Source: Acidimicrobiia bacterium (GTDB lineage: Bacteria > Actinomycetota > Acidimicrobiia > Spongiisociales > UBA5794). Taken from it: a stretch of DNA of 64,000 bases. The notes beneath the pieces are model-generated. The model had not been told where the DNA came from, made no database searches, and saw only the letters and a program-made list of their open reading frames with translations. Each line of letters opens with the position of its first letter. Positions within the stretch are counted from its first letter, which is position 1. The stretch spans positions 19,525-83,524 of the forward strand of contig JBFIXI010000002.1 of NCBI GenBank assembly GCA_041605955.1, given 5' to 3'. This document shows positions 3,990 through 57,242 of this stretch, in pieces. The position numbers and the translations under genes were made by a program.

Positions 3990-4018
3990 TTGTCAATCGA
4001 ACATATGTTCGATATGAT
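3990..4018 (+). promoter_or_regulatory. SOS promoter TTGTCA-N17-TATGAT with the LexA box TCGAACATATGTTCGA (about 3997-4012) filling the spacer
   Basis: Perfect palindrome matching the actinobacterial LexA box TCGAAC-N4-GTTCGA. Near-consensus -35 and -10 elements sit at 17-nt spacing, about 15 nt upstream of the imuA' start. Confidence 0.7.
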
Positions 4019-4032
4019 CTACTCCCGCGCAG

Positions 4033-4737
4033 GTGGGATGTCGAGATGCGGAGGTCCTCGTGGTTGCCCAGATGGGGCGGGCAGTCGAACTACTTGCGGC
4101 TCATCCTGCCGTTGCTGTCGACGATGGACTTGCCCCCGCTCGATCCTTCGATCTGCGATTGGAGCGGGGAAGGGTCATCGGCCTGATTGGTCATCCCGGT
4201 TTCGGCCTCACCCGGATCGGGTTGTCACTACTGGCAGCCCACTCCGGCAACAGCCCGATTGTGTACGTCGATGTGCGTGGGTGGTTGTGTCCGCTGGCAG
4301 CATGGGAGTCGGGAGTCGACCCGGAGCAACTGGTAGTAGTGCGTTGTGACGACCCGGTGCGCTGGGGCCGGGCCCTGATGGCTCTGCTCGAAGGGGTCGG
4401 TTGGGTATATGCCGAGGTTCCCAGGGGGGTCAAGGAGGCGCAGCTACGTCGGGTCGCCGGTCTCGTGCGGGCGCGCCGCTCGGCTTTGATCCTACGTCCC
4501 ATTCAAGGCGACCTTCCCGGCGGGGTTGCCTTCCTACGCATCCAAGCAAGCAACGTGGGCTGGGAAGGCACCGACAACGGCCACGGCAAGCTGACGGCGC
4601 GCTCCCTATCGCTGATCGCCTCGGGTAAGGCAACCCGTGGCATGGCCCGCGAAATCGAGCTGGAGGACGATGGGACGGACGCTTTGCGTTTGGTATCCGG
4701 ACTGGCCGCTGCGCCGCCCGGACGTGCCGCTGGATAG
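4033..4737 (+). CDS. imuA: ImuA'-like SOS mutagenesis protein: inactive RecA/SulA-fold with a degenerate Walker A (GHPGFGLT)
   Basis: Sits directly downstream of the LexA box and is followed by the imuB-like gene. RecA-like fold signature with Walker A lacking the Lys. The start may instead be the internal ATG at about 4072. Confidence 0.55.
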   Translation: MGCRDAEVLVVAQMGRAVELLAAHPAVAVDDGLAPARSFDLRLERGRVIGLIGHPGFGLTRIGLSLLAAHSGNSPIVYVDVRGWLCPLAAWESGVDPEQLVVVRCDDPVRWGRALMALLEGVGWVYAEVPRGVKEAQLRRVAGLVRARRSALILRPIQGDLPGGVAFLRIQASNVGWEGTDNGHGKLTARSLSLIASGKATRGMAREIELEDDGTDALRLVSGLAAAPPGRAAG

Positions 4738-6142
4738 CGCAGCTCAGGCAGTGGGCGAGGACAATCGAGTGCTCGCCGTCAACCAACTGGGCTGGGAGGC
4801 GGGGATTCGCCACGGAATGCGCCGCGGAGAAGCCGAAGCCATCTGTCCCAATGTGGTCACGATCGCCAGCGATCCGGGAATCGAGGCGGTTCGCTTCGAG
4901 CCGGTTGCTCGAGCTATCGAAGAGCTCGTTCCCAATATCGAGCTGACCGCTCCCGGTTTGGTGTTTGCCCCGGTGGCCGGAGCGATCAAGTACTACGGAG
5001 GGGAAGAGCCACTGGTGGCACGGATCGCCAAAGAGATCGATTTGGTCACCGGTCCCGGGTTCAAGATCGGCTTGGCGGCCGGACCCTTTGCGGCTCAGCG
5101 GGCGGCTGAGCTTGCCGATCCAATCCGTATCGTCGATGACGACGCTGAGTTTCTCGCCTCGCTCGACATTGCCTCTCTGGGCAGTGAAGAGTTGGCGGCT
5201 ACTTTCCGCTGGTTGGGAATCACCACTCTGGGTGCGCTGGCTGATCTGCCTCGAGAAGCGATCATCACGAGATTCGGATCTCTCGGAGGGGAGGCCCATC
5301 GGTTGGCTAATGGCTTGGACCGGGTTCCCCACGCCAGGCAAATACCTTCCGATCTCGATGTGGAGGAAGTGTTTACGCCCCCACTGGACAATCTGGAACA
5401 GGCCGCCTTCGTCGCTCGTGCCATGGCCAATCGACTCGTCTCCGAGTTGCGCGCTCATGGAGCCGCGCCCCATCGGGTGGTCGTGACTGCGGAGGCTGCC
5501 GATGGAACGCTGCGGGTGCGCACCTGGCGCAATCGGGACCCGTTCGATGAGGGATCGCTTACGGAGCGGGTTCGCTGGCAATTGCGGGCGTGGCTCGACA
5601 GTGCCCGCTTCCAGAGTGGCCCCGGGATTCGCGGTGGATTGGTGAGGCTGCGGATTGCCCCTGCGGATGTCTCTGACCGCGGAAGACAGCTGGTGCTCAG
5701 CGAAGACGCTCATTCCGCGGCCGAAGTCGAGCGGGCTCTGATTCAGACACAAGCAATTGTCGGTATCGAGGGCGTGATGCAGGCTCGTCCCAAGGGCGGG
5801 CGGCTTCCCAGAGATCGGGTTGCCTGGTATCGATGGGGGGATACTCCTCCTGACGTAGCCGACGATGCCCCCTGGCCGGCTCGTATTCCGGACCCGTCGC
5901 CGGCACTGGTTCCTCCGGAGCCTCCCCGGCTCGAGGTGGAGTGGGACGGGGGTATGCCCACCCGGGTCCGGTTGGGCAGCCGGTGGGTCGAGATCCTCTC
6001 ATGGGCGGGCCCTTGGCGCGACATCGGCCGTTGGTGGAAAGGAGAAGGACCCTGTGATCGTTATCAGTTGGTCACGTCTGCAGGGGCATTCCTATGCGAA
6101 GTGCACGAAGGAAGCGCATTCCTGATAGGAGTGTACGACTGA
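4670..6142 (+). CDS. imuB: ImuB, a Y-family DNA polymerase-like (catalytically inactive) mutasome subunit
   Basis: N-terminus 'LCVWYPDWPL' plus a UmuC/DinB-like fold. Cassette context is imuA' upstream and dnaE2 in the window. The ORF track begins at 4637. I prefer the ATG at about 4670, which still overlaps the imuA' 3' end. Confidence 0.6.
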   Translation: MGRTLCVWYPDWPLRRPDVPLDSAAQAVGEDNRVLAVNQLGWEAGIRHGMRRGEAEAICPNVVTIASDPGIEAVRFEPVARAIEELVPNIELTAPGLVFAPVAGAIKYYGGEEPLVARIAKEIDLVTGPGFKIGLAAGPFAAQRAAELADPIRIVDDDAEFLASLDIASLGSEELAATFRWLGITTLGALADLPREAIITRFGSLGGEAHRLANGLDRVPHARQIPSDLDVEEVFTPPLDNLEQAAFVARAMANRLVSELRAHGAAPHRVVVTAEAADGTLRVRTWRNRDPFDEGSLTERVRWQLRAWLDSARFQSGPGIRGGLVRLRIAPADVSDRGRQLVLSEDAHSAAEVERALIQTQAIVGIEGVMQARPKGGRLPRDRVAWYRWGDTPPDVADDAPWPARIPDPSPALVPPEPPRLEVEWDGGMPTRVRLGSRWVEILSWAGPWRDIGRWWKGEGPCDRYQLVTSAGAFLCEVHEGSAFLIGVYD

Positions 6143-6905: not shown

Positions 6906-6944
6906 GGGATTAGCGTAGCGGTGGCGAAATTCGGGTCTAACGGC

Positions 6945-8123
6945 ATGGTTGTTCGCAAGCTGAGTGTCGATCGGGCGCGGCGCGCCGCCCTGGCCGCGCA
7001 AGGCTTGGCGCGGCCGGCGCCGCCCGGCCGGGTGGACCGGCGCCATTTTCGGCGTTTGTTCGCCGACATCGGGCTGCTGCAGCTCGACTCGGTCAACGTG
7101 CTGGAGCGGTCCCATTATCTGCCGGTCCTGGCCCGGCTCGGCGAATACCGGAAGCCAGACCTGGATCGATACACGGTCGAGTCGGGTGAGGTTTTCGAGT
7201 ATTGGGGCCATGAGGCATCGCTATTGCCGGTAGAGCTCTACCCGCTGCTGCGCTTCAGAATGAACGGCCTCAAGCCATGGCGCCGGGTGCGGGCGCTGAT
7301 GGAAGACCATCCCGGATACGTTGAGTCGGTCTACGACGAGGTGGTCGCCCGGGGGCCGATGACCGTGGGGGACCTTGCCGACCCCGGACGCCGCTCCGGC
7401 AGCTGGTGGGGTTGGGGCAACGGGAAGATCGCGCTCGAGTGGCTGTTCGCATCCGGCCGCATCACCGCCTACCGCACCGCCAATTTCACACGCGTCTACG
7501 ACCTCCCGGAGCGGGTACTGCCCGCCTCCGTCTTGGAGGCCGAACCCGTCTCCCGTCACGAGGCCTACCGGCGCCTACTCGTGCGATCCGTGCAGCACCA
7601 TGCCGTCGGTACCGCCGCGGACCTGGCCGACTACTACCGGTTGCACGGGCCCAGTGCCCGCCCCATCCTGGCCGAGCTGGCCGACGAGGGCGTGATCGCT
7701 CGGGTCGAGGTGCCGGGGTGGAGGGGTCCGGTTTACGCCGATCCTGACCTGTCTGTGCCGCGCCGGGTGACCGGATCCGCACTGTTGAGCCCATTCGATC
7801 CTGTTGTCTGGGCGCGTGACCGTGCCGAGCGACTATTCGACTTCCGCTACCGCATTGAGATCTACGTGCCGAAGTCGAAAAGAGTCTTCGGCTACTACGT
7901 GCTGCCCTACCTGCTAGATGGTGAGCTGGTGGGTCGCGTCGACTTGAAGGCGGACCGACACGCCGGACTGCTGCGGGTGCAGGCCGCTCACGCAGAGCCG
8001 GGTGTCGATGCGCGCCGAGTCGCCGCCGCGATGTGGAGCGATCTCGCGAGCATGGCTCGCTGGCTGGGTCTCGACGGAATCGCAGTATCTGGCGAAGGCA
8101 ATCTCAAGCTGCCGGGCGGATGA
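6945..8123 (+). CDS. Winged-helix DNA-binding protein of the YcaQ/AlkZ family (DNA interstrand-crosslink glycosylase-like)
   Basis: About 390 aa. N-terminus 'LSVDRARRAALAAQGL', the C-terminal 'YVPKSKRVFGYYVLPYLLDGELVGRVDLKADR' and the overall layout match the HTH_42/YcaQ family. The ORF track start at 6921 is GTG. An ATG at 6945 is likelier. Confidence 0.5.
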   Translation: MVVRKLSVDRARRAALAAQGLARPAPPGRVDRRHFRRLFADIGLLQLDSVNVLERSHYLPVLARLGEYRKPDLDRYTVESGEVFEYWGHEASLLPVELYPLLRFRMNGLKPWRRVRALMEDHPGYVESVYDEVVARGPMTVGDLADPGRRSGSWWGWGNGKIALEWLFASGRITAYRTANFTRVYDLPERVLPASVLEAEPVSRHEAYRRLLVRSVQHHAVGTAADLADYYRLHGPSARPILAELADEGVIARVEVPGWRGPVYADPDLSVPRRVTGSALLSPFDPVVWARDRAERLFDFRYRIEIYVPKSKRVFGYYVLPYLLDGELVGRVDLKADRHAGLLRVQAAHAEPGVDARRVAAAMWSDLASMARWLGLDGIAVSGEGNLKLPGG

Positions 8124-19163: not shown

Positions 19164-19892
19164 TCAAGTGTTCGCCCGCCACACTGCAACGGGCTCACCT
19201 TCCGAGACGGGCACTCCTCCCGCAATCTCGTTGGTGAGGGCAAACCCCTGCACATTTCCGACGACCTGGAAGGGCGCCTGGTCGGGATTGGCGCCGAGCA
19301 CGCCGGCCGAGATCACCCGGTCGTCCACTATGGCCCAGAGCTGATAGGTTCGCGACGCATCGAGTGTCGGCAGGTTGTCTGCATAGAGAAAGCCGATGCC
19401 ATCTCGACCCACGACGATGCGCGCCTCAACCGGGCTGCCGTCGTTTGCAGTCAACGTGGCGACGATAGCCGTGGGGTCCTCCAGCAGCTCGTCGATGGCG
19501 ACTTCGACTCCCGGGTTCGATCGCTCCGCCAGCAGGCGCAGCACGCTGATCCCCAGGACCGTGACGAGGGCAACCGCGGCGATCGAGAGCGCGGCCGTGA
19601 CGCGCGTCAGGCGGGAGCGGCCTCTTGCCAACGTCGCTGCCGCCGCATTGGGCGGGGGGGAGGTCGAGATCTGCTCGGCTATGTGTTCCCAGACGAGCGG
19701 AGCCGGCGTCGCCGGGGTGGGGTCGACAGCGTGGGCCAGTACAGCCAGCACGGCGCGATGCTCGTCGAGCTCAGCCCGCAATGCGGCGTCGTGGGCCAGC
19801 GCAGCCTCGACCCAAGTACGTTCCGCGGCGTCGACCGAATCCACGGCATAGGCCGCCACCAGGTCGAGCAGCTCGGTTCGCGAGGAGGTCAT
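19164..19892 (-). CDS. Anti-sigma factor (RskA-type, anti-sigma-K-like)
   Basis: N-terminal zinc-less ASD helix 'LLDLVAAYAVDSVD', a TM segment, and a C-terminal RskA-like domain. ATGA overlap with the upstream ECF sigma gene. Confidence 0.6.
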   Translation of the reverse strand: MTSSRTELLDLVAAYAVDSVDAAERTWVEAALAHDAALRAELDEHRAVLAVLAHAVDPTPATPAPLVWEHIAEQISTSPPPNAAAATLARGRSRLTRVTAALSIAAVALVTVLGISVLRLLAERSNPGVEVAIDELLEDPTAIVATLTANDGSPVEARIVVGRDGIGFLYADNLPTLDASRTYQLWAIVDDRVISAGVLGANPDQAPFQVVGNVQGFALTNEIAGGVPVSEGEPVAVWRANT

Positions 19893-20509
19893 GGCATGAC
19901 TCCCGCCGCAGACAATTGGCCTTTGAGGCGCCTCATCCCGGTGCGGATGCGGCTCTTGATGGTGCCCTCGGGCTCGTCGAGCGCGGCCGCGACCTGGCGA
20001 TAGGTGTAGCCGTGGAAATAGGCGAGCTCGATGGCCCGGCGCTCTTGTTCAGCGAGACCGGCAACGGCTTGGCGCACCTTGTCCGACGCAACGTTCGCCC
20101 ACACTTGGCTCTCGATGTCGGGGGGTCGCGGGACATCCATGAACCGCTCCCGCTTCTCGCGCTCCTTGCGCGCCAGCTCGGAGCGAAGCATGTCGATGCT
20201 GCGGCCATGGGTATCGGCCAGCAAGAAGGAACGCACCGCGCCGCGGGCCGGGTCATACCGTTCGGGCCGGTTCCACAAACGGAGGAACACCTCCTGAGTC
20301 ACCTCCTCCGCCATCTCGGGGCTCTTCACGAGCCGCCGGGCGAGCGCGAACACAGACCCTCCGTGGCGATCGTATAGTTCGGAGAGCGCCGCTTCGTCGT
20401 AGCGCGCGACGGCCATCACCAAGCCGGCATCGGACGCTTCGATGCCTCGGGTCCCGCTAAACCGATTATCCGACACTGTGTTTGGAGCCTCTGTGGCAAG
20501 CGCGAGCAT
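19889..20509 (-). CDS. ECF-family RNA polymerase sigma-70 factor (SigK-like)
   Basis: Regions 2 and 4 ('VTQEVFLRLW', 'LAEQERRAIELAYFHGYTYRQVAAALDEPEGTIKSRI'). Start set at an internal Met. The ORF track extends to 20611. Confidence 0.7.
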   Translation of the reverse strand: MLALATEAPNTVSDNRFSGTRGIEASDAGLVMAVARYDEAALSELYDRHGGSVFALARRLVKSPEMAEEVTQEVFLRLWNRPERYDPARGAVRSFLLADTHGRSIDMLRSELARKEREKRERFMDVPRPPDIESQVWANVASDKVRQAVAGLAEQERRAIELAYFHGYTYRQVAAALDEPEGTIKSRIRTGMRRLKGQLSAAGVMP

Positions 20510-20680
20510 GGACGTGACTCTTTTCGGCTGCGACGGTAATACGGAGGTCGGAAGGTTGTCGGATGACGGTCTGCTTCGTCCGACGCGACCAGATGCAGCC
20601 AGGTAGACCAAGACTATGTTGGGGGCATGACAGCAGTCCGGGATACCATTGGATGGCCAACCGGCGGCGAGGTCCGGCCA

Positions 20681-27215: not shown

Positions 27216-27839
27216 ATGCGGCCGAACGTAGAAAGGATGTATGTGGCCGAGAACGCGCCGCCCGGCTGGTACCAAGCCGCGACCGACCCGCCAGGCACCG
27301 AGCGCTACTGGGATGGCAACCAGTGGTCTGCCGACACACGACCGGCGGCCACGTCGCCTGCTGCGCCGCCGGAGGTCGCCACCGGCGATCGGGTCACTCC
27401 TCACGGACGCCAGATCGCCTCGGCCGGATCGCGTATCGGGGCACGGCTCATCGACGTCCTCATCATCGTCCTGATATCGGCGCCGCTCGTATTTCCCAAC
27501 ATGACGATCGAGAACGGTGTCGTCACCTACGAGAACTTTGCGATCCAATGGCTCGTGGCTGCCATTGGTGCGGCCTACGAGATCTTGTTCACCGCGTTGC
27601 GTAGCGCCACCCCCGGAAAGATGCTCGTCGGCATCGAGATAGTGCGTAAGTCCGATGGCCACGTCCCCATCGGCTTTGGCACCGCGGCGCTGCGATGGTC
27701 CCCCAACCTCTTGAACTACGTGGCCACCGGGTTGGGGGGAGTAGTCGTCCTGCTGTCGCTGATCCTCTTGTTTGCCGATCGGATGCGGCGAACGGTATTC
27801 GACTTCGTCGGGCAGACGTTCGTGGTCAGCAAACGCTGA
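27216..27839 (+). CDS. RDD-family membrane protein with an N-terminal DUF2510-like 'GWY...P.GTERYWDG..W' segment
   Basis: R..D..D pattern (RLIDVLI...) and 3 TM helices. Likely start at the internal Met at about 27237. Confidence 0.6.
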   Translation: MRPNVERMYVAENAPPGWYQAATDPPGTERYWDGNQWSADTRPAATSPAAPPEVATGDRVTPHGRQIASAGSRIGARLIDVLIIVLISAPLVFPNMTIENGVVTYENFAIQWLVAAIGAAYEILFTALRSATPGKMLVGIEIVRKSDGHVPIGFGTAALRWSPNLLNYVATGLGGVVVLLSLILLFADRMRRTVFDFVGQTFVVSKR

Positions 27840-27845
27840 CGGGCG

Positions 27846-28502
27846 ATGGCACGTCGCCGCCGTCCTCGGCCAAGGGGCTGGTACGAGAAGCAGGGTGATC
27901 CGCCGGGCACGGAGCGGTTCTGGGATGGGGAGAAGTGGGGCCCCAATCCGCGCTACAAGCGGGGCGCTGCCCCGCCGCCGGCACGGGTGGACGAGCCGGC
28001 CCTCGCCGCGGCCGAGCCGACGCAGAGCACGGTTTGGGCTCGCATCAGCGCCAGGTCGGTAGACACCCTGGTTCTGCTCTTCCCGTGGTACTGGCTCTTC
28101 ACCAGGGCGTTCACCACGGAGGTGGGGGCCGGCGGCGAGGCCGTCACCACAACTCACGCTCTCTACCTGTGGCTGGCCGCCGCCATGGTCATCGCCTTCG
28201 ACGTGGGGTTCACCGCAACCTGGGGGGCGACTCCCGGGAAACGCCTGGTCGGTTTGATGATCGTCGATCGCGACGAACGCAAGAGCCCTCCCGGGTGGGG
28301 CCGATCGATCTTGCGGGCCACCCCGTTGCTGTTGGTGGTGGCGGTGTTGTTGCTGCCCTTGCTGTGGTTGGCCTGCGTGGTCTTCATGTTCGTCGACAAG
28401 AAGCAACGCTCGCTCTTCGACTTGTCAGGTGCAACGTTGGTCGTGATCGATCCGCGTCGCTCCGACCGTCTGGCCCGGCCGCGGAAGCCCAAGGCGACGT
28501 AG
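27846..28502 (+). CDS. RDD-family membrane protein, paralogue of the preceding gene (DUF2510-like N-terminus)
   Basis: Same architecture ('GWYEKQGDPPGTERFWDGEKW', RDD core 'TPGKRLVGLMIV'). Confidence 0.6.
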   Translation: MARRRRPRPRGWYEKQGDPPGTERFWDGEKWGPNPRYKRGAAPPPARVDEPALAAAEPTQSTVWARISARSVDTLVLLFPWYWLFTRAFTTEVGAGGEAVTTTHALYLWLAAAMVIAFDVGFTATWGATPGKRLVGLMIVDRDERKSPPGWGRSILRATPLLLVVAVLLLPLLWLACVVFMFVDKKQRSLFDLSGATLVVIDPRRSDRLARPRKPKAT

Positions 28503-28515
28503 GTTCCGTTCATGG

Positions 28516-28575
28516 CCCAGCCGAGGTAAGCCCAGCCGAGGTAAGCCCAGCCGAGGTAAGCTCAGCCGAGGTAGC
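28516..28575. repeat. 15-bp tandem repeat CCCAGCCGAGGTAAG, 3 perfect copies plus 1 degenerate, abutting the dnaE2 LexA box
   Basis: Read directly in the sequence. Confidence 0.8.
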
Positions 28576-28577
28576 AA

Positions 28578-28593
28578 TCGAACATATGTTCGA
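28578..28593 (+). promoter_or_regulatory. LexA box TCGAACATATGTTCGA upstream of dnaE2
   Basis: Perfect TCGAAC-N4-GTTCGA palindrome. The surrounding 20 nt (CAATCGAACATATGTTCGAT) are identical to the imuA' site. A TAAGCT -10-like hexamer ends about 8 nt before the dnaE2 ATG, so the transcript would be leaderless or nearly so. Confidence 0.7.
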
Positions 28594-28610
28594 TGTAAGC
28601 TGGCTGGTCC

Positions 28611-31600
28611 ATGACGTCAGCTGCCCGCCACAACGCCAATGCAGCGTTCATCGAAACTGGGCCCCACAATGCAGGGCCCCTAAACGCAGGGGTCCGATAT
28701 GCAGAGCTCCATTGCCACACCAACTACAGCTTTCTCGATGGAGCCTCCCATCCTTTCGAGCTGGTAGCTAGAGCCGCCGAGTTGGGTTATACCGCGCTCG
28801 GCGTCGTAGATCACGATGGCTTCCGTGGCGCCGCCAAGGTTCATCAAGCCGCTGGCCACGTGGGGATGGCTGTGGTCTATGGAACCGAAGTAGGAATGCC
28901 GCCCGATTTCGTCGAAGTCTCGCCATCCCCAGCAGTCGCCGAGCCGGTAGCTCCGTTGTCTCCGCCTTCGCGACGTGGCCGGATTCGTCGCATGCACGGG
29001 TCGAAGCCGGCGACCAAGGCGACCTCTGATCATCTCGTGCTCCTGGCGCCGGATCCGGCCGGATATGCCGCCATCAGCGATTTCGTCACCAAGGGGCAGA
29101 TGCGGGGAGCCAAAGATGCTCCGCGCTACAGCTATGCCGAGCTGGAGACGGCTGCCCGAATTGGCAATCTGGTGGCGCTCACCGGTTGCTGGCAAGGGGC
29201 AGTTCCTCGGGCCGCCCAAGCAGGCGATTTCGACGCCGCGCTGCAGGCGGCCGCTCGACTGCGCAACATCTTCGGCAGTCGTCTCTACGTCGAGCTATGG
29301 CACCACGCCATGCCGGAAGACGATGCTCGCAATGACATCCTCGCCGAAGTGGCGCATCGCCTCGGTTTGGAGACTGTGGCGACCAACAACGTCCACTACG
29401 TCGACCGCTCCCAAGCTGATCTATCCGAGGTACTCGCCGCTATCGGAGGTCGTCGCAACCTGGACTTGGCCGACGGCTTCCGCCCCGCCACCGATGAGCG
29501 TTACTTACGCAGCGCAAGGGAGATGGCGGCGCGTTTTGCCCGTTATCCGGGTGCCGTCGAACGGGCTGCTGAGTTGGGGGCAGAGCTGGCGTTCGATCTC
29601 CAGCTGCTGGCGCCTGAGCTGCCCGACTTCCCGATGCCGGGAGCTTTCACGACCGAAGACGAGTACCTCCGTCAGCTCGTGCTCGACGGGGCTCGCCGGG
29701 TATATCCCGGTGATGGCCCCGGCGGCATCGAGCGGCATGCGCTGGATCGGATCAATCACGAGCTGGAAGTCATCGAAGAGCTCGGCTTCGCCGGCTTCTT
29801 CCTGGTGGCCTGGGACATCGTCCAGTTCGCCCGCAGCCGCAACATCTACTGTCAGATACGCGGCTCGGGAGCAGATTCCGCCATCTGCCGCTGCATCGGG
29901 CTCACTCGCGTCGATCCCATCCGGCTCCAGCTTCCGTTCGAGCGGTTCCTCTCGTCCGAGCGGGGTCGACCGCCCGACATAGACATCGATTTCGAGGCGG
30001 AGCGCCGCGAGGAGGTCATTCAGTACTGCTACAGCCGATACGGCCGAGAGCGAGCCGCCATGGTGGCCAACGTCATCACCTACCGGGCTCGCTCGGTGCT
30101 CCAGGACGTGGGCAAGGCTTTCGGGCTCACCCAGGCGCAGGTCAACGCTCTCACCAAGTATCTCGACAGCCGCAGCCCCCGCCATCTACGGGAAGAGCTC
30201 AACCTCCCGGCGGGACTGACGAGTGAGCTGATCTACGACGTGTGCTGGCGCCTCGACGGCTTCCCGCGCCACCTCGGCATCCACTCCGGGGGGATGGTCG
30301 TGGCCAAGCGGCCGCTGTGGGAGGTGGTGCCGATCGAGTGGGGCCGGATGGAGGACCGTACCGTGTTGCAGTGGGACAAGGACGATTGTGCCGTCATGGG
30401 CATCGTCAAGTTCGATCTGCTGGCTCTGGGGGCGATGAATGGTCTCCACTTGACGGTCGATGCCATTCGCGAGGCTCACGGCGTCGACATCGATCTGGCA
30501 ACGATTCCGCAAGAGCCGGTGATCTACGACATGCTGACCCGAGCGGACACCGTAGGCATCTTCCAGGTCGAATCGCGCGCCCAGATGGCAACGCTGCCCC
30601 GGATGAAGCCGAAGACCTTCTACGACTTGGCGGTCGAGGTGGCGTTGATCCGTCCCGGCCCCATTCAGGGCCACTCCGTGCATCCGTACCTACGGCGGCG
30701 TAACGGAGAGGAGCCGGTGCGCTATCCCCACCCCCTTGCCGAGCCGATCTTGAAGAAGACGTTGGGCGTGCCCGTCTTCCAGGAGCAGTTGATGGAGCTG
30801 GCGCGGCTGTGTGCCGGTTTCAGCTCGGGGCAGTCTGATCGGCTACGCCAAGCGATGACACACAAACGTTCCGACGAGGCGATGGCCGAGCTCCGCGACG
30901 AGGTCTATGCCGGGATGGCGCGCAACGGGGTGACCGGCAGTGCCGCGGACGAGATCTGGGAGAAGCTGCAGGGGTTCGCCTCGTTCGGCTTTCCAGAGTC
31001 GCACTCGGTGTCGTTCGCCTACATCGTCTATGCCGCCTCGTGGTTGCGCTACCACTGGCCGGCCGAGTTCCTGATGGGCCTACTCAATGCCCAGCCGATG
31101 GGCTTCTATTCACCGCACACTCTCGTCCAAGACGGCATTCACCATGGGGTGATCGTGCTGCCTCCCGATGTCAACCACTCCCAATTCGACTGCACCATCG
31201 AGCATGTTCGGGCCGATCCGAACGACATTGCTGAGTATCTCGGACTTAGGTGGCGGCGGGGGAGGGGCGCCATCGACGATCCGGTGCGCGCCGCCGTTGC
31301 AGTGCGCATCGGATTGCGCTACGTGCGCAACCTCGGGGATGCCGAGATCACTCGTATCGAGGCCGCCCGTCGTGTCGCCGGGCCGTTCACCAGTCCCGAG
31401 GATCTGGCGCAGCGCACCGGTCTGCCGCTCGACGCACTCGAGGGATTGGCAGCGTCCGGTGCGCTGCAATCGCTCGACTTGGAGCGTCGGGAGGGGATCT
31501 GGGCTGCTGGAGCCCTCGCTGAGCTCGGTCCCGATCGGCTGGCGCTCGCGCCAGGAGCCCGCCCGCCCGAGCTGGCCGAGATGGATCGCTACGAGCGGGT

Positions 31601-31991
31601 GAAGGCAGACTTGTGGTCGACGTCGCTCTCTGTGACGCATCCAGTCTCGTTCATCCGCAACGAGCTGACCGCGGTGGGATGTCTGACGATTCAACAAGCC
31701 CTCGAGCTGCGTAAGCACGGCACCAAAGCGCGCGTCGGTGGATTGGTGACTCACAGACAACGTCCCGGCACGGCCAACGGGGTGCGGTTCCTCAACCTCG
31801 AGGACGAGACGGGCCTGCTCAACGTCGTCGTGCTTCCCCCGGTATGGGACGCCAACTATGAGATTGCTCGCAAGTCGATCGGAGTAGTCATCGAAGGGGT
31901 CCTCGAATACCGCGACGGGGTCACCAACTTGGTCTCGCATCGGTTCGAGGATTGGCCGGTACTGGCGGTGAAGTCCCGGGACTTCCGCTAG
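28611..31991 (+). CDS. dnaE2: Error-prone DNA polymerase III alpha-like subunit DnaE2 (ImuC)
   Basis: PHP domain 'YAELHCHTNYSFLDGAS', a pol III alpha core, and a C-terminal OB fold. About 1100 aa. LexA box upstream, with imuA'/imuB in the window. Confidence 0.8.
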   Translation: MTSAARHNANAAFIETGPHNAGPLNAGVRYAELHCHTNYSFLDGASHPFELVARAAELGYTALGVVDHDGFRGAAKVHQAAGHVGMAVVYGTEVGMPPDFVEVSPSPAVAEPVAPLSPPSRRGRIRRMHGSKPATKATSDHLVLLAPDPAGYAAISDFVTKGQMRGAKDAPRYSYAELETAARIGNLVALTGCWQGAVPRAAQAGDFDAALQAAARLRNIFGSRLYVELWHHAMPEDDARNDILAEVAHRLGLETVATNNVHYVDRSQADLSEVLAAIGGRRNLDLADGFRPATDERYLRSAREMAARFARYPGAVERAAELGAELAFDLQLLAPELPDFPMPGAFTTEDEYLRQLVLDGARRVYPGDGPGGIERHALDRINHELEVIEELGFAGFFLVAWDIVQFARSRNIYCQIRGSGADSAICRCIGLTRVDPIRLQLPFERFLSSERGRPPDIDIDFEAERREEVIQYCYSRYGRERAAMVANVITYRARSVLQDVGKAFGLTQAQVNALTKYLDSRSPRHLREELNLPAGLTSELIYDVCWRLDGFPRHLGIHSGGMVVAKRPLWEVVPIEWGRMEDRTVLQWDKDDCAVMGIVKFDLLALGAMNGLHLTVDAIREAHGVDIDLATIPQEPVIYDMLTRADTVGIFQVESRAQMATLPRMKPKTFYDLAVEVALIRPGPIQGHSVHPYLRRRNGEEPVRYPHPLAEPILKKTLGVPVFQEQLMELARLCAGFSSGQSDRLRQAMTHKRSDEAMAELRDEVYAGMARNGVTGSAADEIWEKLQGFASFGFPESHSVSFAYIVYAASWLRYHWPAEFLMGLLNAQPMGFYSPHTLVQDGIHHGVIVLPPDVNHSQFDCTIEHVRADPNDIAEYLGLRWRRGRGAIDDPVRAAVAVRIGLRYVRNLGDAEITRIEAARRVAGPFTSPEDLAQRTGLPLDALEGLAASGALQSLDLERREGIWAAGALAELGPDRLALAPGARPPELAEMDRYERVKADLWSTSLSVTHPVSFIRNELTAVGCLTIQQALELRKHGTKARVGGLVTHRQRPGTANGVRFLNLEDETGLLNVVVLPPVWDANYEIARKSIGVVIEGVLEYRDGVTNLVSHRFEDWPVLAVKSRDFR

Positions 31992-52838: not shown

Positions 52839-55800
52839 TCACCGGGCGCTCCCCAGGCTGAGCCCCTTGTAACCCGCTTTGAGGCCGGCTGCGATCAGGT
52901 CGGCACCGACAAGGGTGGTGGCGGCCGGGGTGCCGTCGATCTGCTCAAGCGCCGTGGGTCGAGATTGGCGTTCCATGAGGGCGATTATGGCGGCGGTGGT
53001 CGTGTCGCGGTCGGCATCGAAAGTCAGCGCGCGGCGGCTTCCCTTCTCCAGGTATGCCGCCAGCTTGCCATCGGCAAGGGCTACTGCGGCCCCGGCACGG
53101 CGGGCCGGGGCGCCTCCCGCCGACTCCGGCCAGGCGATCGTGGCACCGTACGGGTTGGCCGGGTCCACTGCGCTCAGGGTGACGATTCCGGTCTCTCCGC
53201 CGGCGCGCAGCCGGTCTACCGCACCCGGCATAGCGAACTGGGCGCCACCTTGACCTTCGATGAAATAGCCGCGGCGCGCCTTGCCGGCGTCTTCGAGGGC
53301 ACTGAATACCGGGTACAGCCCGGCAAAGCCTCCGGGCACTCCCTCGGTGAGCACAGCCTCGCGAGTCACTACGCCGTGGCGGGTGAGTAGCTGCTCGGCC
53401 AGGGCGGCCACCCTGGCCTCGGCCGCTACCGGCTCATCGCGCCTCAAGACGTCCTCGACGAGATACCAGCGCCCGGTGGCCGCGGCCGGAGTCGCCGCCG
53501 AGACGTGAGGCCGTCCCCGCCGGCGAGAATTGCGACGCCGGCCCCATAGGAACGCTCGCAGCGGCGCCAGGGTGTCGTTGGTGACCTCGCCTGCCCAGAC
53601 GAGATCCCACAGCGCGGCCACGACCTGCTCCGGGTCGCCCCCTTCGGCGGCTACGTAGAGGTCTCGGAAGAACGATGCGCCGCGGGCGCTGAGGTGATGG
53701 CGCAGCCGATCGTGGATCGTGCCGGCGGGCGGCTCGAGGGGCATGTCCCAGTGCAGTAGAGGGGCCTGTTCCCGCAGATACAGTGCCACTCGCCCGTCTC
53801 GTAGACCCAGAGCCTGTCGCCCCACCCATACCAGATCACCCGAGGCGAGCAGGTCGTCGAGCATGGCAGGCTCGTATCTCATTCGGTCCGGAAGGATCGA
53901 GGACTCGAGCTCGCTGGCGGGAAGGGTGGCTCCTTGCAGGCTGCGGATGACGTCGAGCAATCGACTAGGGCTTGCAGAGGTTTCGCCGACGCCGTGCCAC
54001 CCCGGCAGGAACCGGCCCAGAGCCGCCACGTCGACCGCTTCGACCTCGCGTCGGAGCTTGGCCAGTGAGCGCCGCCGGAGTCTGCGCAGGACCTCAACGT
54101 CCACCCAGTCGTGATCGGAGGCCCCGCCGGGGCGATAGGTCCCGCGGCTGACCCGGTTGGCTTGTTCGAGCCGGTTGAGGACCTCGGTCACGGCCGCCAC
54201 CGGCAATCCGAGCGCAGCTGCCGCGTCCGCCGCGGAGAACGGGCTGTGAGTGCGGGCGTAGCGACCGACGACATCGCCGAGTGAGTCGGCAACCGGTTCC
54301 AGCAACGATTCGGCGATTCCGGGAGGTGGGGAAACGCCGAGAGCGTCACGCAACCGGGCAACATCCTCGACGGCGGCGAGTACCTCACGTCCGGCGACCC
54401 GTACCGGCGCGATGCGGCGTTGCTGCTGTAGCTCGTCGAGCCACTGTTGGCTGGCGGCGGGATCGGCAGCTCGGTCGGCGACCTCTGTGGTGGTGAGCGG
54501 GCCGAGATCGCGCAGCATGTCGTGCAGGTGGTCTCGGCTGGTGATGCGTCGCTCCGCCGACAGGCGCTGCAGATCCAGCTCCACCGACTCGACGACATCG
54601 GGATCCAGGAGATCGCGGAACTCCGGGTCGCCGAGTATCTCGCGCAGTAGGGAGCGGTCAAGCGTCAGGGCGGCGGCGCGTTTCTCGGCCACCGGCGCGT
54701 CGTATTCGTACATGAACGACGCGATGAAGTCGAACATGAGCGAGGAGGCCATCGGGCTCGGCGTGTCGAGCTCGATCTGGTGAACCCGCGTCTTGCGTCC
54801 GGCGACATCTCGTAGGACTTCGATGACGGCGGGCAGGTCGAAGTGGTCCTGGAGGATTTCTCGATAGGTCTCGAGCACGACCGGAAACGACCCATAACGT
54901 TTCGCCACCGAAAGCAGATCGGCGGCCCGCCGGCGCTGCAGCCACAACGGCGTGCGCGACCCGGGGCGGCGACGGGGGAGTAGGAGCGACCGGGCGGCGG
55001 CCTCACGAAAACGGGCGGTGAACAGCGCGCTGTCTCCGACCTCCTCGAGCAACAGCTCCTCCATCTCGTCCGGCGCGATGATCAGGGTGGCCGCAGCCGG
55101 CGGGGTGTCCACGTCCGGGAATCGGAACATGATCCCGTCGTCGGCCCAGATCACATCCACCTCGCCCCCGTGTTCCTGCCGGTAACGGCGGCGAGCCGCC
55201 AGCGCCCACGGCGCGTGCACCCGTGAGCCGAAGGGAGACAGCACCGCTACTCGCCAATCACCGATTTCGTCTCGGAATTGCTCGACGACGATTGAGCGGT
55301 CGGTCGGCAGTGTCCCTGTTGTGGCTTTCTCGGCGGCGATGAACGCCGCCAGGTTGGCCGCCGCCCATGGGTCCAGCCGGTAGCGCGCTTCGAGGAGGCC
55401 GGTTGCGGCCGACTCGTCGAGGGCCCCGATCTCGCGCACAAAGGCGCCCACGGCCCGACCCAATTCGAGGGGCCGTCCGGGTCCGTCCCCATGCCAGAAG
55501 GGCATGCGCGCCGGAGTGCCGGCTTCGGCGGGGAGAACGGTCACCCGATCATGGGTGATCTCGGCGATCTTCCAGGATGACGCCCCGAGCACGAAGACAT
55601 CGCCGGGACGGCTTTCGTAGACCATCTCCTCGTCGAGCTCGCCCACCTTGCCGCCCTCTGGTAGCACGACCGTATAGAGCCCCCGATCGGGAATGGTTCC
55701 CGGGTTGGTGACGGCGAGCATCCGGGCGTTGCTGCGAGCTTCGATGACGCCTTCGACGCGATCCCACACGATGCGGGGGCGCAGCTCGGCGAACTCGTCG

Positions 55801-57242
55801 CTGGGGTAGCGGCCGGCGAGCATGTCGAGCACCGCTTCGAGACCGGCGCGGGTCAAGTCGCGGTAGGGCGCAGCACGCCGAATCAGGCTATGGATGTCGT
55901 CGACGGCGTGCCGCCCCGTCGCCGCCATCGCCACGATGTGCTGAGCCAACACGTCGAGCGGGTTGCGCGGTATCCGGGTCGATTCGATGGCGCCCGCATA
56001 CATCCGGTCGACGACCACCGCAGTCTCGAGGAGGTCGCCGCGGTGCTTGGGGAACACCTTGGCAACCGAGGCGGCGCCGACCTGGTGGCCGGCTCGGCCG
56101 ACTCTTTGTAGGCCGCGGGCCACCGAATTGGGGGACTCGACGAGGAGCACCAGGTCGATGGCCGCCATGTCGATACCGAGCTCGAGGGTGGAGGTCGCCA
56201 CGACACCCTTCAGTTCGCCGCGCTTCAACCGACCTTCGATCTCGATCCGCTGCTCGCGAGACACCGAGCCGTGATGCGACTGGACGAGCTCCTCTCCGGC
56301 CAACCGGTTCAGCTCGGCCGCTAGTCGCTCCGCCAAGCCGCGGGAGTTGACGAAGAGCAAAGTGGACGTATGGGTTTGAATCAGCTCTAGCAGTCGCGGA
56401 TACATGGCGGGCCAGATGGAGCGCTTGGCCGGCTCGTTGGGATCCGGCTGCGCTCCATCAACTGCCGGCACCGGTGTCTCCTCGGGGCGGTTCATGTCGG
56501 CCACCGGGACGACGATCTGCACGTCGAGCTCCTTCTCCCACGGAGCATCGACGACGGTCACCGGACGCGGGGTCCACTGGTCGCCACTGAGCTCGCCGCC
56601 CCCGAGGAACTCGGCGATGGCCTCCAGCGGTCGCTGTGTCGCCGACAGGCCGATGCGTTGCGGAACGGCCTCCGTGAGCTGGTTGAGACGCTCCAGGCTG
56701 AGCGCCAGATGCGAGCCCCGCTTCGTGCCCGCCACGGAGTGAATCTCGTCGACGATGACCCACCGGACGGTACGGAGGATGCGGCGGGCCTGCGACGTGA
56801 GCATCAGATACAGCGATTCAGGCGTAGTGATGAGGATGTCAGGCGGGTGTCGCAACATCGCCTGGCGCTCACCCGCCGGGGTGTCGCCGGTCCGCATGGC
56901 AGTCGATAGCCGTGGTTGCTCCGTTTGCATCCGTTGCGCGGCCAGTTGGATACCTTGGAGCGGAGCCCGCAGGTTCCGCTCCACATCGTATGCCAGAGCC
57001 TTCATGGGGGAGATGTACAGAACCCGGCACCGATCTCCTTCGGCTGGGATCGGCTCTGCGGCCAGCCGGTCGATGGCCCACAGAAAGGCCGCCAGCGTCT
57101 TGCCGGAGCCGGTGGGCGCATGGATCAGGGTGTTATCGCCGGCGGCGATGGCTTCCCACCCCTTGACCTGGGCTGCGGTGGGCTCCGGGAAGGCCGATTC
57201 GAACCATGCCCGGGTCGGCTCCGAGAACAGACGTAGCGCCAT
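52839..57242 (-). CDS. lhr: Lhr-family ATP-dependent DNA helicase (large helicase-related), full length with the C-terminal Lhr-CTD
   Basis: 'HAPTGSGKT' Walker A, DEIH box, superfamily 2 helicase motifs, and about 1467 aa with the long Lhr C-terminal extension. Confidence 0.85.
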   Translation of the reverse strand: MALRLFSEPTRAWFESAFPEPTAAQVKGWEAIAAGDNTLIHAPTGSGKTLAAFLWAIDRLAAEPIPAEGDRCRVLYISPMKALAYDVERNLRAPLQGIQLAAQRMQTEQPRLSTAMRTGDTPAGERQAMLRHPPDILITTPESLYLMLTSQARRILRTVRWVIVDEIHSVAGTKRGSHLALSLERLNQLTEAVPQRIGLSATQRPLEAIAEFLGGGELSGDQWTPRPVTVVDAPWEKELDVQIVVPVADMNRPEETPVPAVDGAQPDPNEPAKRSIWPAMYPRLLELIQTHTSTLLFVNSRGLAERLAAELNRLAGEELVQSHHGSVSREQRIEIEGRLKRGELKGVVATSTLELGIDMAAIDLVLLVESPNSVARGLQRVGRAGHQVGAASVAKVFPKHRGDLLETAVVVDRMYAGAIESTRIPRNPLDVLAQHIVAMAATGRHAVDDIHSLIRRAAPYRDLTRAGLEAVLDMLAGRYPSDEFAELRPRIVWDRVEGVIEARSNARMLAVTNPGTIPDRGLYTVVLPEGGKVGELDEEMVYESRPGDVFVLGASSWKIAEITHDRVTVLPAEAGTPARMPFWHGDGPGRPLELGRAVGAFVREIGALDESAATGLLEARYRLDPWAAANLAAFIAAEKATTGTLPTDRSIVVEQFRDEIGDWRVAVLSPFGSRVHAPWALAARRRYRQEHGGEVDVIWADDGIMFRFPDVDTPPAAATLIIAPDEMEELLLEEVGDSALFTARFREAAARSLLLPRRRPGSRTPLWLQRRRAADLLSVAKRYGSFPVVLETYREILQDHFDLPAVIEVLRDVAGRKTRVHQIELDTPSPMASSLMFDFIASFMYEYDAPVAEKRAAALTLDRSLLREILGDPEFRDLLDPDVVESVELDLQRLSAERRITSRDHLHDMLRDLGPLTTTEVADRAADPAASQQWLDELQQQRRIAPVRVAGREVLAAVEDVARLRDALGVSPPPGIAESLLEPVADSLGDVVGRYARTHSPFSAADAAAALGLPVAAVTEVLNRLEQANRVSRGTYRPGGASDHDWVDVEVLRRLRRRSLAKLRREVEAVDVAALGRFLPGWHGVGETSASPSRLLDVIRSLQGATLPASELESSILPDRMRYEPAMLDDLLASGDLVWVGRQALGLRDGRVALYLREQAPLLHWDMPLEPPAGTIHDRLRHHLSARGASFFRDLYVAAEGGDPEQVVAALWDLVWAGEVTNDTLAPLRAFLWGRRRNSRRRGRPHVSAATPAAATGRWYLVEDVLRRDEPVAAEARVAALAEQLLTRHGVVTREAVLTEGVPGGFAGLYPVFSALEDAGKARRGYFIEGQGGAQFAMPGAVDRLRAGGETGIVTLSAVDPANPYGATIAWPESAGGAPARRAGAAVALADGKLAAYLEKGSRRALTFDADRDTTTAAIIALMERQSRPTALEQIDGTPAATTLVGADLIAAGLKAGYKGLSLGSAR

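Follow-up and report, generated by a model that had tools for sequence, protein, structure and literature searches.

We put the probability at about 0.9 that the stretch of DNA analysed here, a 64-kb window (all coordinates are window positions), encodes an SOS mutasome of the actinobacterial (ImuA2-ImuB2-DnaE2A) type in two LexA-repressed units on the same strand, i.e., imuA'-imuB (4060-6142) and dnaE2 (28611-31991). Homologue names and genome records place the DNA among uncultured Acidimicrobiia (Actinomycetota), and the nearest of the 603 ImuA' homologues found, 73-81% identical, come from metagenome-assembled genomes (MAGs) of that class. A first-pass annotation of the window had proposed that a cassette physically split in this way is co-regulated through a shared LexA operator, and conservation of the boxes at both genes in relatives argues, by analogy with mycobacteria, that the two units would indeed respond together.

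Relatives were compared at 160 loci in all, comprising loci from species-level genomes retrieved with an ImuA' profile (L001-L080) and metagenome contigs retrieved with DnaE2, where relatives of at least 65% identity are called close.

Operators and promoters

The first-pass annotation had reported the same 20-nt sequence before both units, and this was borne out: the window holds CAATCGAACATATGTTCGAT in exactly two copies, at 3994-4013 ahead of imuA'-imuB and at 28575-28594 ahead of dnaE2, with no matches in 100 shuffles. Each copy contains a perfect TCGAAC-N4-GTTCGA box with the spacer ATAT, again as had been claimed, and the two boxes (3997-4012 and 28578-28593, 24,581 nt apart) are the only perfect ones in the window, where none is expected by chance. 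They agree with the LexA consensus established by experiment in mycobacteria, TCGAAC-N4-GTTCGA with the core CGAAC-N4-GTTCG (PMC3381160). The regulatory elements at the two loci are as follows:

3990..3995, + strand: -35 hexamer TTGTCA of the imuA'-imuB promoter
3997..4012, no strand: LexA operator 1, TCGAACATATGTTCGA, a perfect palindrome in the -35/-10 spacer, conserved in relatives
4013..4018, + strand: -10 hexamer TATGAT, directly adjoining operator 1
28578..28593, no strand: LexA operator 2, TCGAACATATGTTCGA, a perfect palindrome 17 nt upstream of the dnaE2 ATG, conserved in relatives
28594..28602, + strand: candidate weak -10 region of dnaE2 (TGTAAG 28594-28599 or TAAGCT 28597-28602), proposed by analogy with relatives

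Both operators lie over the core promoter, as in a LexA regulon, inside the -35/-10 spacer at imuA' and 17 nt from the ATG at dnaE2. The promoter proposed for imuA' by the first-pass annotation was recovered in our scan as a sigma-70-like match at 10 of 12 positions with a 17-nt spacer, although the box covers 16 of the 17 spacer positions and does not, as had been stated, fill the spacer exactly. The further claim that the two promoters are identical did not hold, since only the operators are identical and the same scan found no consensus promoter at dnaE2. All but two bases of the shared 20-mer belong to the 18-nt palindrome ATCGAAC-ATAT-GTTCGAT, and the extended operator AA-TCGAACATATGTTCGA-T is also found in relatives, so the identity of the two sites reflects a consensus operator and not a duplicated promoter. 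Duplication of the promoter was ruled out, as the identity ends at the operator.

This arrangement is strongly conserved. Among the 76 of the 80 species-level loci with enough sequence upstream of imuA', a box precedes the gene in 75 (66 perfect, 49 with the identical 16-mer), and the promoter geometry is kept across the 76, with a TTGnCn -35 element 1-2 nt upstream of the box and a TAnnnT -10 element starting 0-2 nt past it. A box lies directly upstream of dnaE2 in all 20 close loci whose sequence includes the DnaE2 N-terminus, perfect in 16 and with one mismatch in four. In these close relatives a TAnnnT hexamer (TATAGT, TAGAAT, TAGACT) adjoins the box, with the start codon another 7-12 nt downstream, a spacing which implies leaderless transcripts. 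By analogy, the dnaE2 transcript in the window would be leaderless or near-leaderless, with a weak -10 next to the operator.

The dnaE2 operator stands between two 15-nt tandem repeats, at 28515-28573 and 28659-28691. The upstream repeat, GCCCAGCCGAGGTAA in 3.9 copies, is intergenic and adjoins the box, and the second, in 2.2 copies, encodes GPHNA-GPLNA within a 28-amino-acid N-terminal extension of DnaE2 that is not found in close relatives. The most durable alternative to our reading builds on these features: the units may not be strictly co-regulated, with a dnaE2 promoter that is much weaker or additionally controlled, the 15-nt array acting as a binding or spacing element, and the level or timing of expression uncoupled. 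Such uncoupling would fit the contrast between a 10/12 promoter at imuA' and none detectable at dnaE2, as well as the position of the array and the lack of a counterpart for the extension, but the operator at dnaE2 is identical and perfectly placed, and relatives free of the repeat share the same geometry of box, -10 and start. Furthermore, the upstream repeat unit was found in none of the 160 related loci, and hence cannot be counted as a conserved regulatory element. Among Actinobacteria, leaderless starts and weak -35 elements are common as well. On balance we regard uncoupled expression as unlikely.

Layout and synteny

The distance between the units, given as about 22 kb by the first-pass annotation, measures 22.5 kb between the stop of imuB (6142) and the ATG of dnaE2 (28611), the largest gap directly measured among the loci compared. 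It is filled by approximately 25 housekeeping or metabolic genes, encoding an acyltransferase, an AlkZ-like glycosylase, a short-chain dehydrogenase/reductase (SDR), 5-formyl-tetrahydrofolate cyclo-ligase (FTHFcl), YbaK, an isochorismatase, an ABC transporter with its substrate-binding protein (SBP), thiamine pyrophosphokinase, an extracytoplasmic function (ECF) sigma/anti-sigma pair, uridine kinase (udk), a GDSL lipase, YchF, a luciferase-like monooxygenase (LLM), and ACT and RDD proteins. No mobile-element genes (integrase, transposase) were found among them.

The gene order of this block is conserved from both sides. The imuB-proximal order, imuB-acyltransferase-AlkZ-SDR-FTHFcl-YbaK-isochorismatase-ABC-SBP, recurs in dozens of Acidimicrobiia genomes, and the dnaE2-proximal order, RskA-ECF-Udk-GDSL-YchF-hypothetical-LLM-ACT-dnaE2, recurs in L081 and L100, such that the two syntenic halves jointly tile the whole intervening block. 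Two further contigs (L102 and L103) join both ends through shorter blocks of 7-9 kb.

Gap size was assessed in the 40 loci with at least 8 kb of sequence downstream of imuB, in which dnaE2 was sought within approximately 8.6 kb. It was absent from that interval in 32, and in six, all from soil MAGs (L043-L045, L050, L053, L055), it lies approximately 6.4 kb from imuB and has its own box. The cassette is contiguous, with an 8-nt gap between imuB and dnaE2, in three MAGs of the Candidatus Spongiisocius type (L049, L074, L079), i.e., two of the 40 plus L049, and these contiguous loci carry a single, slightly degenerate box (GCGAAC-N4-GTTCGG). Gap size is a continuum that varies within the clade, and the split is the majority state in Acidimicrobiia. 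The first-pass annotation had treated contiguity as usual and the split as the exception, which is true of Proteobacteria and not of this phylum, the split layout being shared with M. tuberculosis.

A recent rearrangement or insertion, e.g., of a mobile element or genomic island, could in principle have divided a contiguous operon in this genome alone, and the few contiguous cassettes, together with the collinear order and orientation of imuB and dnaE2, are what an insertion would give. Against this, the intervening genes are housekeeping and metabolic ones such as ychF, udk, the sigma/anti-sigma pair and the ABC transporter, with no integrase or transposase; the same order stands beside imuB in dozens of species-level genomes and beside dnaE2 in L081 and L100; and a conserved operator of its own precedes dnaE2 in all close relatives. 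Because of this synteny and the conserved dnaE2 operator, any insertion events would be old and clade-level rather than specific to this genome, and we consider a recent split very unlikely. The comparison of relatives that the first-pass annotation had suggested, in order to separate an ancestral split from a rearrangement, points to the former: since the intervening housekeeping genes are syntenic, the split appears to be ancestral in the Acidimicrobiia clade.

Within the block, an AlkZ-like DNA glycosylase gene (6921-8123, + strand; PF06224, 2e-67) is located two genes past imuB, and the order imuB-acyltransferase-AlkZ is found in 44 of the 80 species-level loci. This adjacency may be plain synteny and not a functional link, because no LexA box precedes the glycosylase gene. 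The ECF sigma factor and RskA-type anti-sigma factor genes (19164-20611, - strand) are syntenic in L081. Directly upstream of dnaE2 stand two tandem paralogous genes for RDD/DUF2510 membrane proteins (27216-28502, + strand), which were not detected in any of the related loci with sequence upstream of dnaE2, including L081 and L100, and this pair may be a local insertion or duplication.

Boxes elsewhere in the window

Other matches to the box in the window carry one or two mismatches, occur at approximately chance frequency and are intragenic. A search for further LexA boxes across the window, including the regions before the AlkZ-like glycosylase and an Lhr-type helicase, yielded none, the matches with one mismatch all lying within genes. 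The palindromes might nevertheless be the binding sites of another regulator instead of LexA, or be functionless chance occurrences, and no lexA gene was seen in the window; yet their sequence equals the mycobacterial LexA consensus, core included (PMC3381160), and they are conserved at exactly these two genes across approximately 100 loci, where chance would give no perfect site. We find this explanation extremely improbable.

The Lhr-type large DNA helicase (1467 amino acids) is encoded at 52839-57242 on the - strand. Upstream of it, TGTCA-N11-TACGCT followed after 6 nt by the ATG may form a leaderless promoter, and there is no LexA box. Matches to the mycobacterial RecA-independent (RecA-NDp) promoter motif were also sought and none was obtained, including no full motif at this gene.

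Gene products of the cassette

The three genes and two motifs within their products are as follows:

4060..4737, + strand: imuA', RecA-fold accessory protein, predicted to be ATPase-dead
4189..4212, + strand: degenerate Walker A GHPGFGLT (Lys to Leu), from alignment to RecA GPESSGKT
4670..6142, + strand: imuB, Y-family hub protein, predicted to be catalytically inactive
5687..5704, + strand: probable beta-clamp-binding motif QLVLSE, ImuB residues 340-345
28611..31991, + strand: dnaE2, error-prone C-family DNA polymerase (ImuC)

The open reading frames reported by the first-pass annotation (4033-4737, 4637-6142 and 28611-31991) all exist, and the spans require correction at the start of imuA', which had been set at GTG 4033. 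Homologues begin MVAQ and a GGAGG at 4050-4054 stands 5 nt before GTG 4060, so that 4060 is the most likely start on the basis of sequence; a public gene call (P0001) offers ATG 4072 as another. Some public ImuA' calls (P0041, P0105) are over-extended and run through the operator, their N-termini (...IEHMFD...) being the translation of ATCGAACATATGTTCGA, and an IEHMFD N-terminus is therefore a handy sign of mis-called starts in this family. The imuB reading frame opens at 4637, and the conserved N-terminus MxRTLCVWYPDWP fits ATG 4670, most likely its start. ATG 28611 is the sole in-frame start upstream of the conserved RYAELHCH of DnaE2. Third-position guanine-cytosine content is 0.67-0.68 in imuA' and imuB, 0.76 in dnaE2 and 0.77-0.85 in most neighbouring genes.

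Family assignment used Pfam and NCBIfam models with their curated cutoffs, and the profile searches upheld the three identities given in the first-pass annotation. The window ImuA' matches NF058630, the ImuA' model built on Rv3395c (E=9e-13, 48 bits), and public homologues carry the precomputed family PF27531. A single-sequence phmmer search of the PDB gave a marginal RecA match (E=0.14), and a profile built from 18 homologues matched only RecA there, aligning the RecA Walker A GPESSGKT with GxPGxGLT. The AlphaFold model (mean predicted local distance difference test score 75 overall, approximately 90 in the core) agrees, as the top 50 Foldseek matches in the PDB are all RecA (E ~1e-9). Within the Walker A, G53, G56, G58, L59 and T60 are invariant among the 18 homologues, including the leucine in place of lysine, so the lysine-less GHPGFGLT and the RecA fold that had been claimed were both confirmed. 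The protein encoded just upstream of imuB hence combines a RecA fold with the loss of functional Walker motifs, and actinobacterial ImuA2 is known to lack Walker A and B (PMC12926913).

ImuB matches Pfam IMS (E=1.2e-10) and, weakly, IMS_C. Where a solved Pol IV has the catalytic SIDEAYLD, the alignment places TAPGLVFA, i.e., the DE dyad is gone and no acidic residue remains, leaving a Y-family fold without the catalytic acidic residues. In each of the 80 species-level loci imuB neighbours imuA', and the protein shows full-length homology (29-38%) to ImuBs whose genes immediately precede dnaE2 in more distant contigs, including a C-terminal extension of approximately 150 residues past the Y-family core. 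In mutasomes of this type, the ImuB extension comprises a RecA-NT-like motif and an ImuB-C domain and binds ImuA' and DnaE2. Within the protein a segment, ERALIQTQAIVGIEGVM, looks by eye like the RecA N-terminal helix. QLVLSE aligns with QLGLWG/QPGLWG of the more distant ImuBs, and among 99 ImuBs the Q is conserved in all 99, the leucine at +1 in 77 and that at +3 in 81. The corresponding M. tuberculosis motif, 352-QLPLWG-357, is essential in mycobacteria, where ImuB has also been described as the hub (PMC10421592), and QLVLSE is probably a minor variation of this clamp motif.

The imuA' and imuB genes overlap by 68 nt (4670-4737) in different frames. In the 58 loci in which both gene ends could be aligned, the overlap is 68 nt in 52 and 65 nt in six, and both protein ends are conserved across it, which makes it a dual-coding stretch. 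It presumably serves translational coupling.

DnaE2 scores 1228.5 bits on the error-prone DNA polymerase model NF004225 (cutoff 939), and its PHP, Pol3 alpha, finger, HHH and OB domains are all present. Its translation retains PDIDIDF and VKFDLL, which we take, from Pol III alpha, to be the catalytic aspartate motifs; it is a DnaE2-type error-prone C-family polymerase with these aspartates intact. That the proteins are instead SulA, an active DinB and the housekeeping DnaE1, the outcome the first-pass annotation had named as fatal to its proposal, is scarcely credible, for although older literature called the cassette genes sulA, dinP and dnaE (PMC3901139) and ImuB matches DinB models weakly, there is no SulA match where ImuA' matches its own model and the RecA fold, the DinB scores of ImuB reach 25-46 bits against cutoffs of 256-389 with the catalytic dyad gone, and the polymerase falls under the cutoff of the DnaE1 equivalog (NF004226; 674 against 1002) and over that of the error-prone model.

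Proposed mechanism

Families, residue losses and conserved features (operators, promoter geometry, synteny) were observed directly in the sequences, and from mycobacterial experiments we infer LexA binding, damage induction and formation of a complex. In undamaged cells, a LexA dimer would sit on each 16-bp palindrome and block RNA polymerase, at imuA' from within the -35/-10 spacer and at dnaE2 by adjoining a weak -10 near a leaderless or near-leaderless start. DNA damage would activate RecA and trigger self-cleavage of LexA, derepressing both units together. ImuB, serving as a catalytically inactive scaffold of the Y family that bears a QLxL clamp motif and is extended at its C-terminus, would then bring ImuA' and DnaE2 to the beta clamp, where ImuA' (RecA fold, no ATPase lysine), catalytic DnaE2 and ImuB would carry out mutagenic lesion bypass. 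Damage induction and the need for all three genes in induced mutagenesis are known from mycobacteria (PMC10421592, PMC3381160).

Several observations weigh against this account. The 48 bits of ImuA' are below the curated NF058630 cutoff of 65, and the protein matched no model in the Pfam search; the W-G present in the tested mycobacterial motif is missing from QLVLSE and replaced throughout the clade; the sigma-70 scan that found the imuA' promoter gave no consensus promoter at dnaE2; and neither lexA nor recA is among the annotated genes of the window, the part of the genome covered here.

Some features particular to the class or to this genome, i.e., the overlap, the AlkZ neighbourhood and the dnaE2 repeats with the extension, may have functional meaning in Acidimicrobiia, a suggestion we hold to be rather improbable. 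The conserved 65/68-nt out-of-frame overlap could set subunit stoichiometry via translational coupling. The imuB-acyltransferase-AlkZ neighbourhood could couple the unhooking of interstrand crosslinks to mutasome bypass, an idea that fits the mitomycin-C phenotype of the mycobacterial mutasome. Lastly, the 15-nt repeats and the 28-amino-acid extension, found in this genome alone, might modulate DnaE2 expression or interaction.

The arrangement is real but ordinary, and already known. Its value is that the mycobacterial type of split, doubly LexA-gated mutasome is standard also in the deep-branching, mostly uncultured Acidimicrobiia, that the near-invariant operator TCGAACATATGTTCGA could be used for predicting SOS regulons in MAGs of this class, and that many ImuA' entries listed as "hypothetical protein" in Acidimicrobiia can be renamed. 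Past annotation it matters little, and no new question on SOS mutagenesis arises from it.

Comparison with known systems

The closest likeness is to mycobacteria, for which a split imuA'-imuB/dnaE2 arrangement has been described in both M. tuberculosis and M. smegmatis (PMC6511836, PMC3901139, PMC3381160). There too, imuA'-imuB (Rv3395c-Rv3394c) form a two-gene unit, with dnaE2 (Rv3370c) downstream on the same strand. LexA chromatin immunoprecipitation sequencing (ChIP-seq) peaks in M. tuberculosis lie at Rv3395c (3811492-3811767) and dnaE2 (3784705-3784908), both genes being RecA-dependent and damage-induced under the consensus TCGAAC-N4-GTTCGA (PMC3381160), and these peaks are approximately 26.8 kb apart compared with 24.6 kb between the boxes in the window. 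As in the window, a separate TCGAAC-N4-GTTCGA operator serves each mycobacterial unit, no ATPase motifs remain in ImuA', ImuB has lost catalytic function, and Q-L-x-L occurs at the equivalent position; actinobacterial ImuA2 and ImuB2 have been described as being without Walker motifs and catalytic residues, respectively (PMC12926913, PMC6511836). The window differs in belonging to the class Acidimicrobiia, with diverged proteins and an ImuA' below the cutoff of the Rv3395c-based model, as well as in its clamp motif (QLVLSE rather than QLPLWG), its intervening genes and the 28-amino-acid N-terminal extension of DnaE2. The 68-nt imuA'/imuB overlap is a conserved feature within Acidimicrobiia, the class across which it was compared.

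The LexA-binding motif of Proteobacteria differs from that of the window. The proteobacterial lexA2-imuA-imuB-imuC (dnaE2) cassette, e.g., of Pseudomonas putida and Caulobacter crescentus, is similarly LexA-regulated and damage-inducible and pairs DnaE2 with a RecA-like protein and an inactive member of the Y family (PMC3901139, PMC6511836), but it forms one contiguous operon, and its proteins belong to the ImuA1/ImuB1 groups as opposed to ImuA2 (ImuA') and ImuB2 (PMC12926913). A more distant, functional analogue is umuDC (Pol V) of E. coli, also a LexA-repressed, RecA-dependent machine for translesion synthesis and mutagenesis (PMC6511836). Its proteins play unrelated roles: UmuC is itself an active polymerase of the Y family, assisted by UmuD'2 and RecA, no C-family polymerase takes part, and the system is under another LexA motif.

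Within the Acidimicrobiia themselves, the contiguous or short-gap loci (L049, L074 and L079; the six soil MAGs; L102 and L103) encode orthologues that are 50-70% identical and share the imuA' operator and the overlap with the window. They differ from it in the position of dnaE2, which follows imuB after 8 nt under a single box or lies 6-9 kb away with a box of its own.

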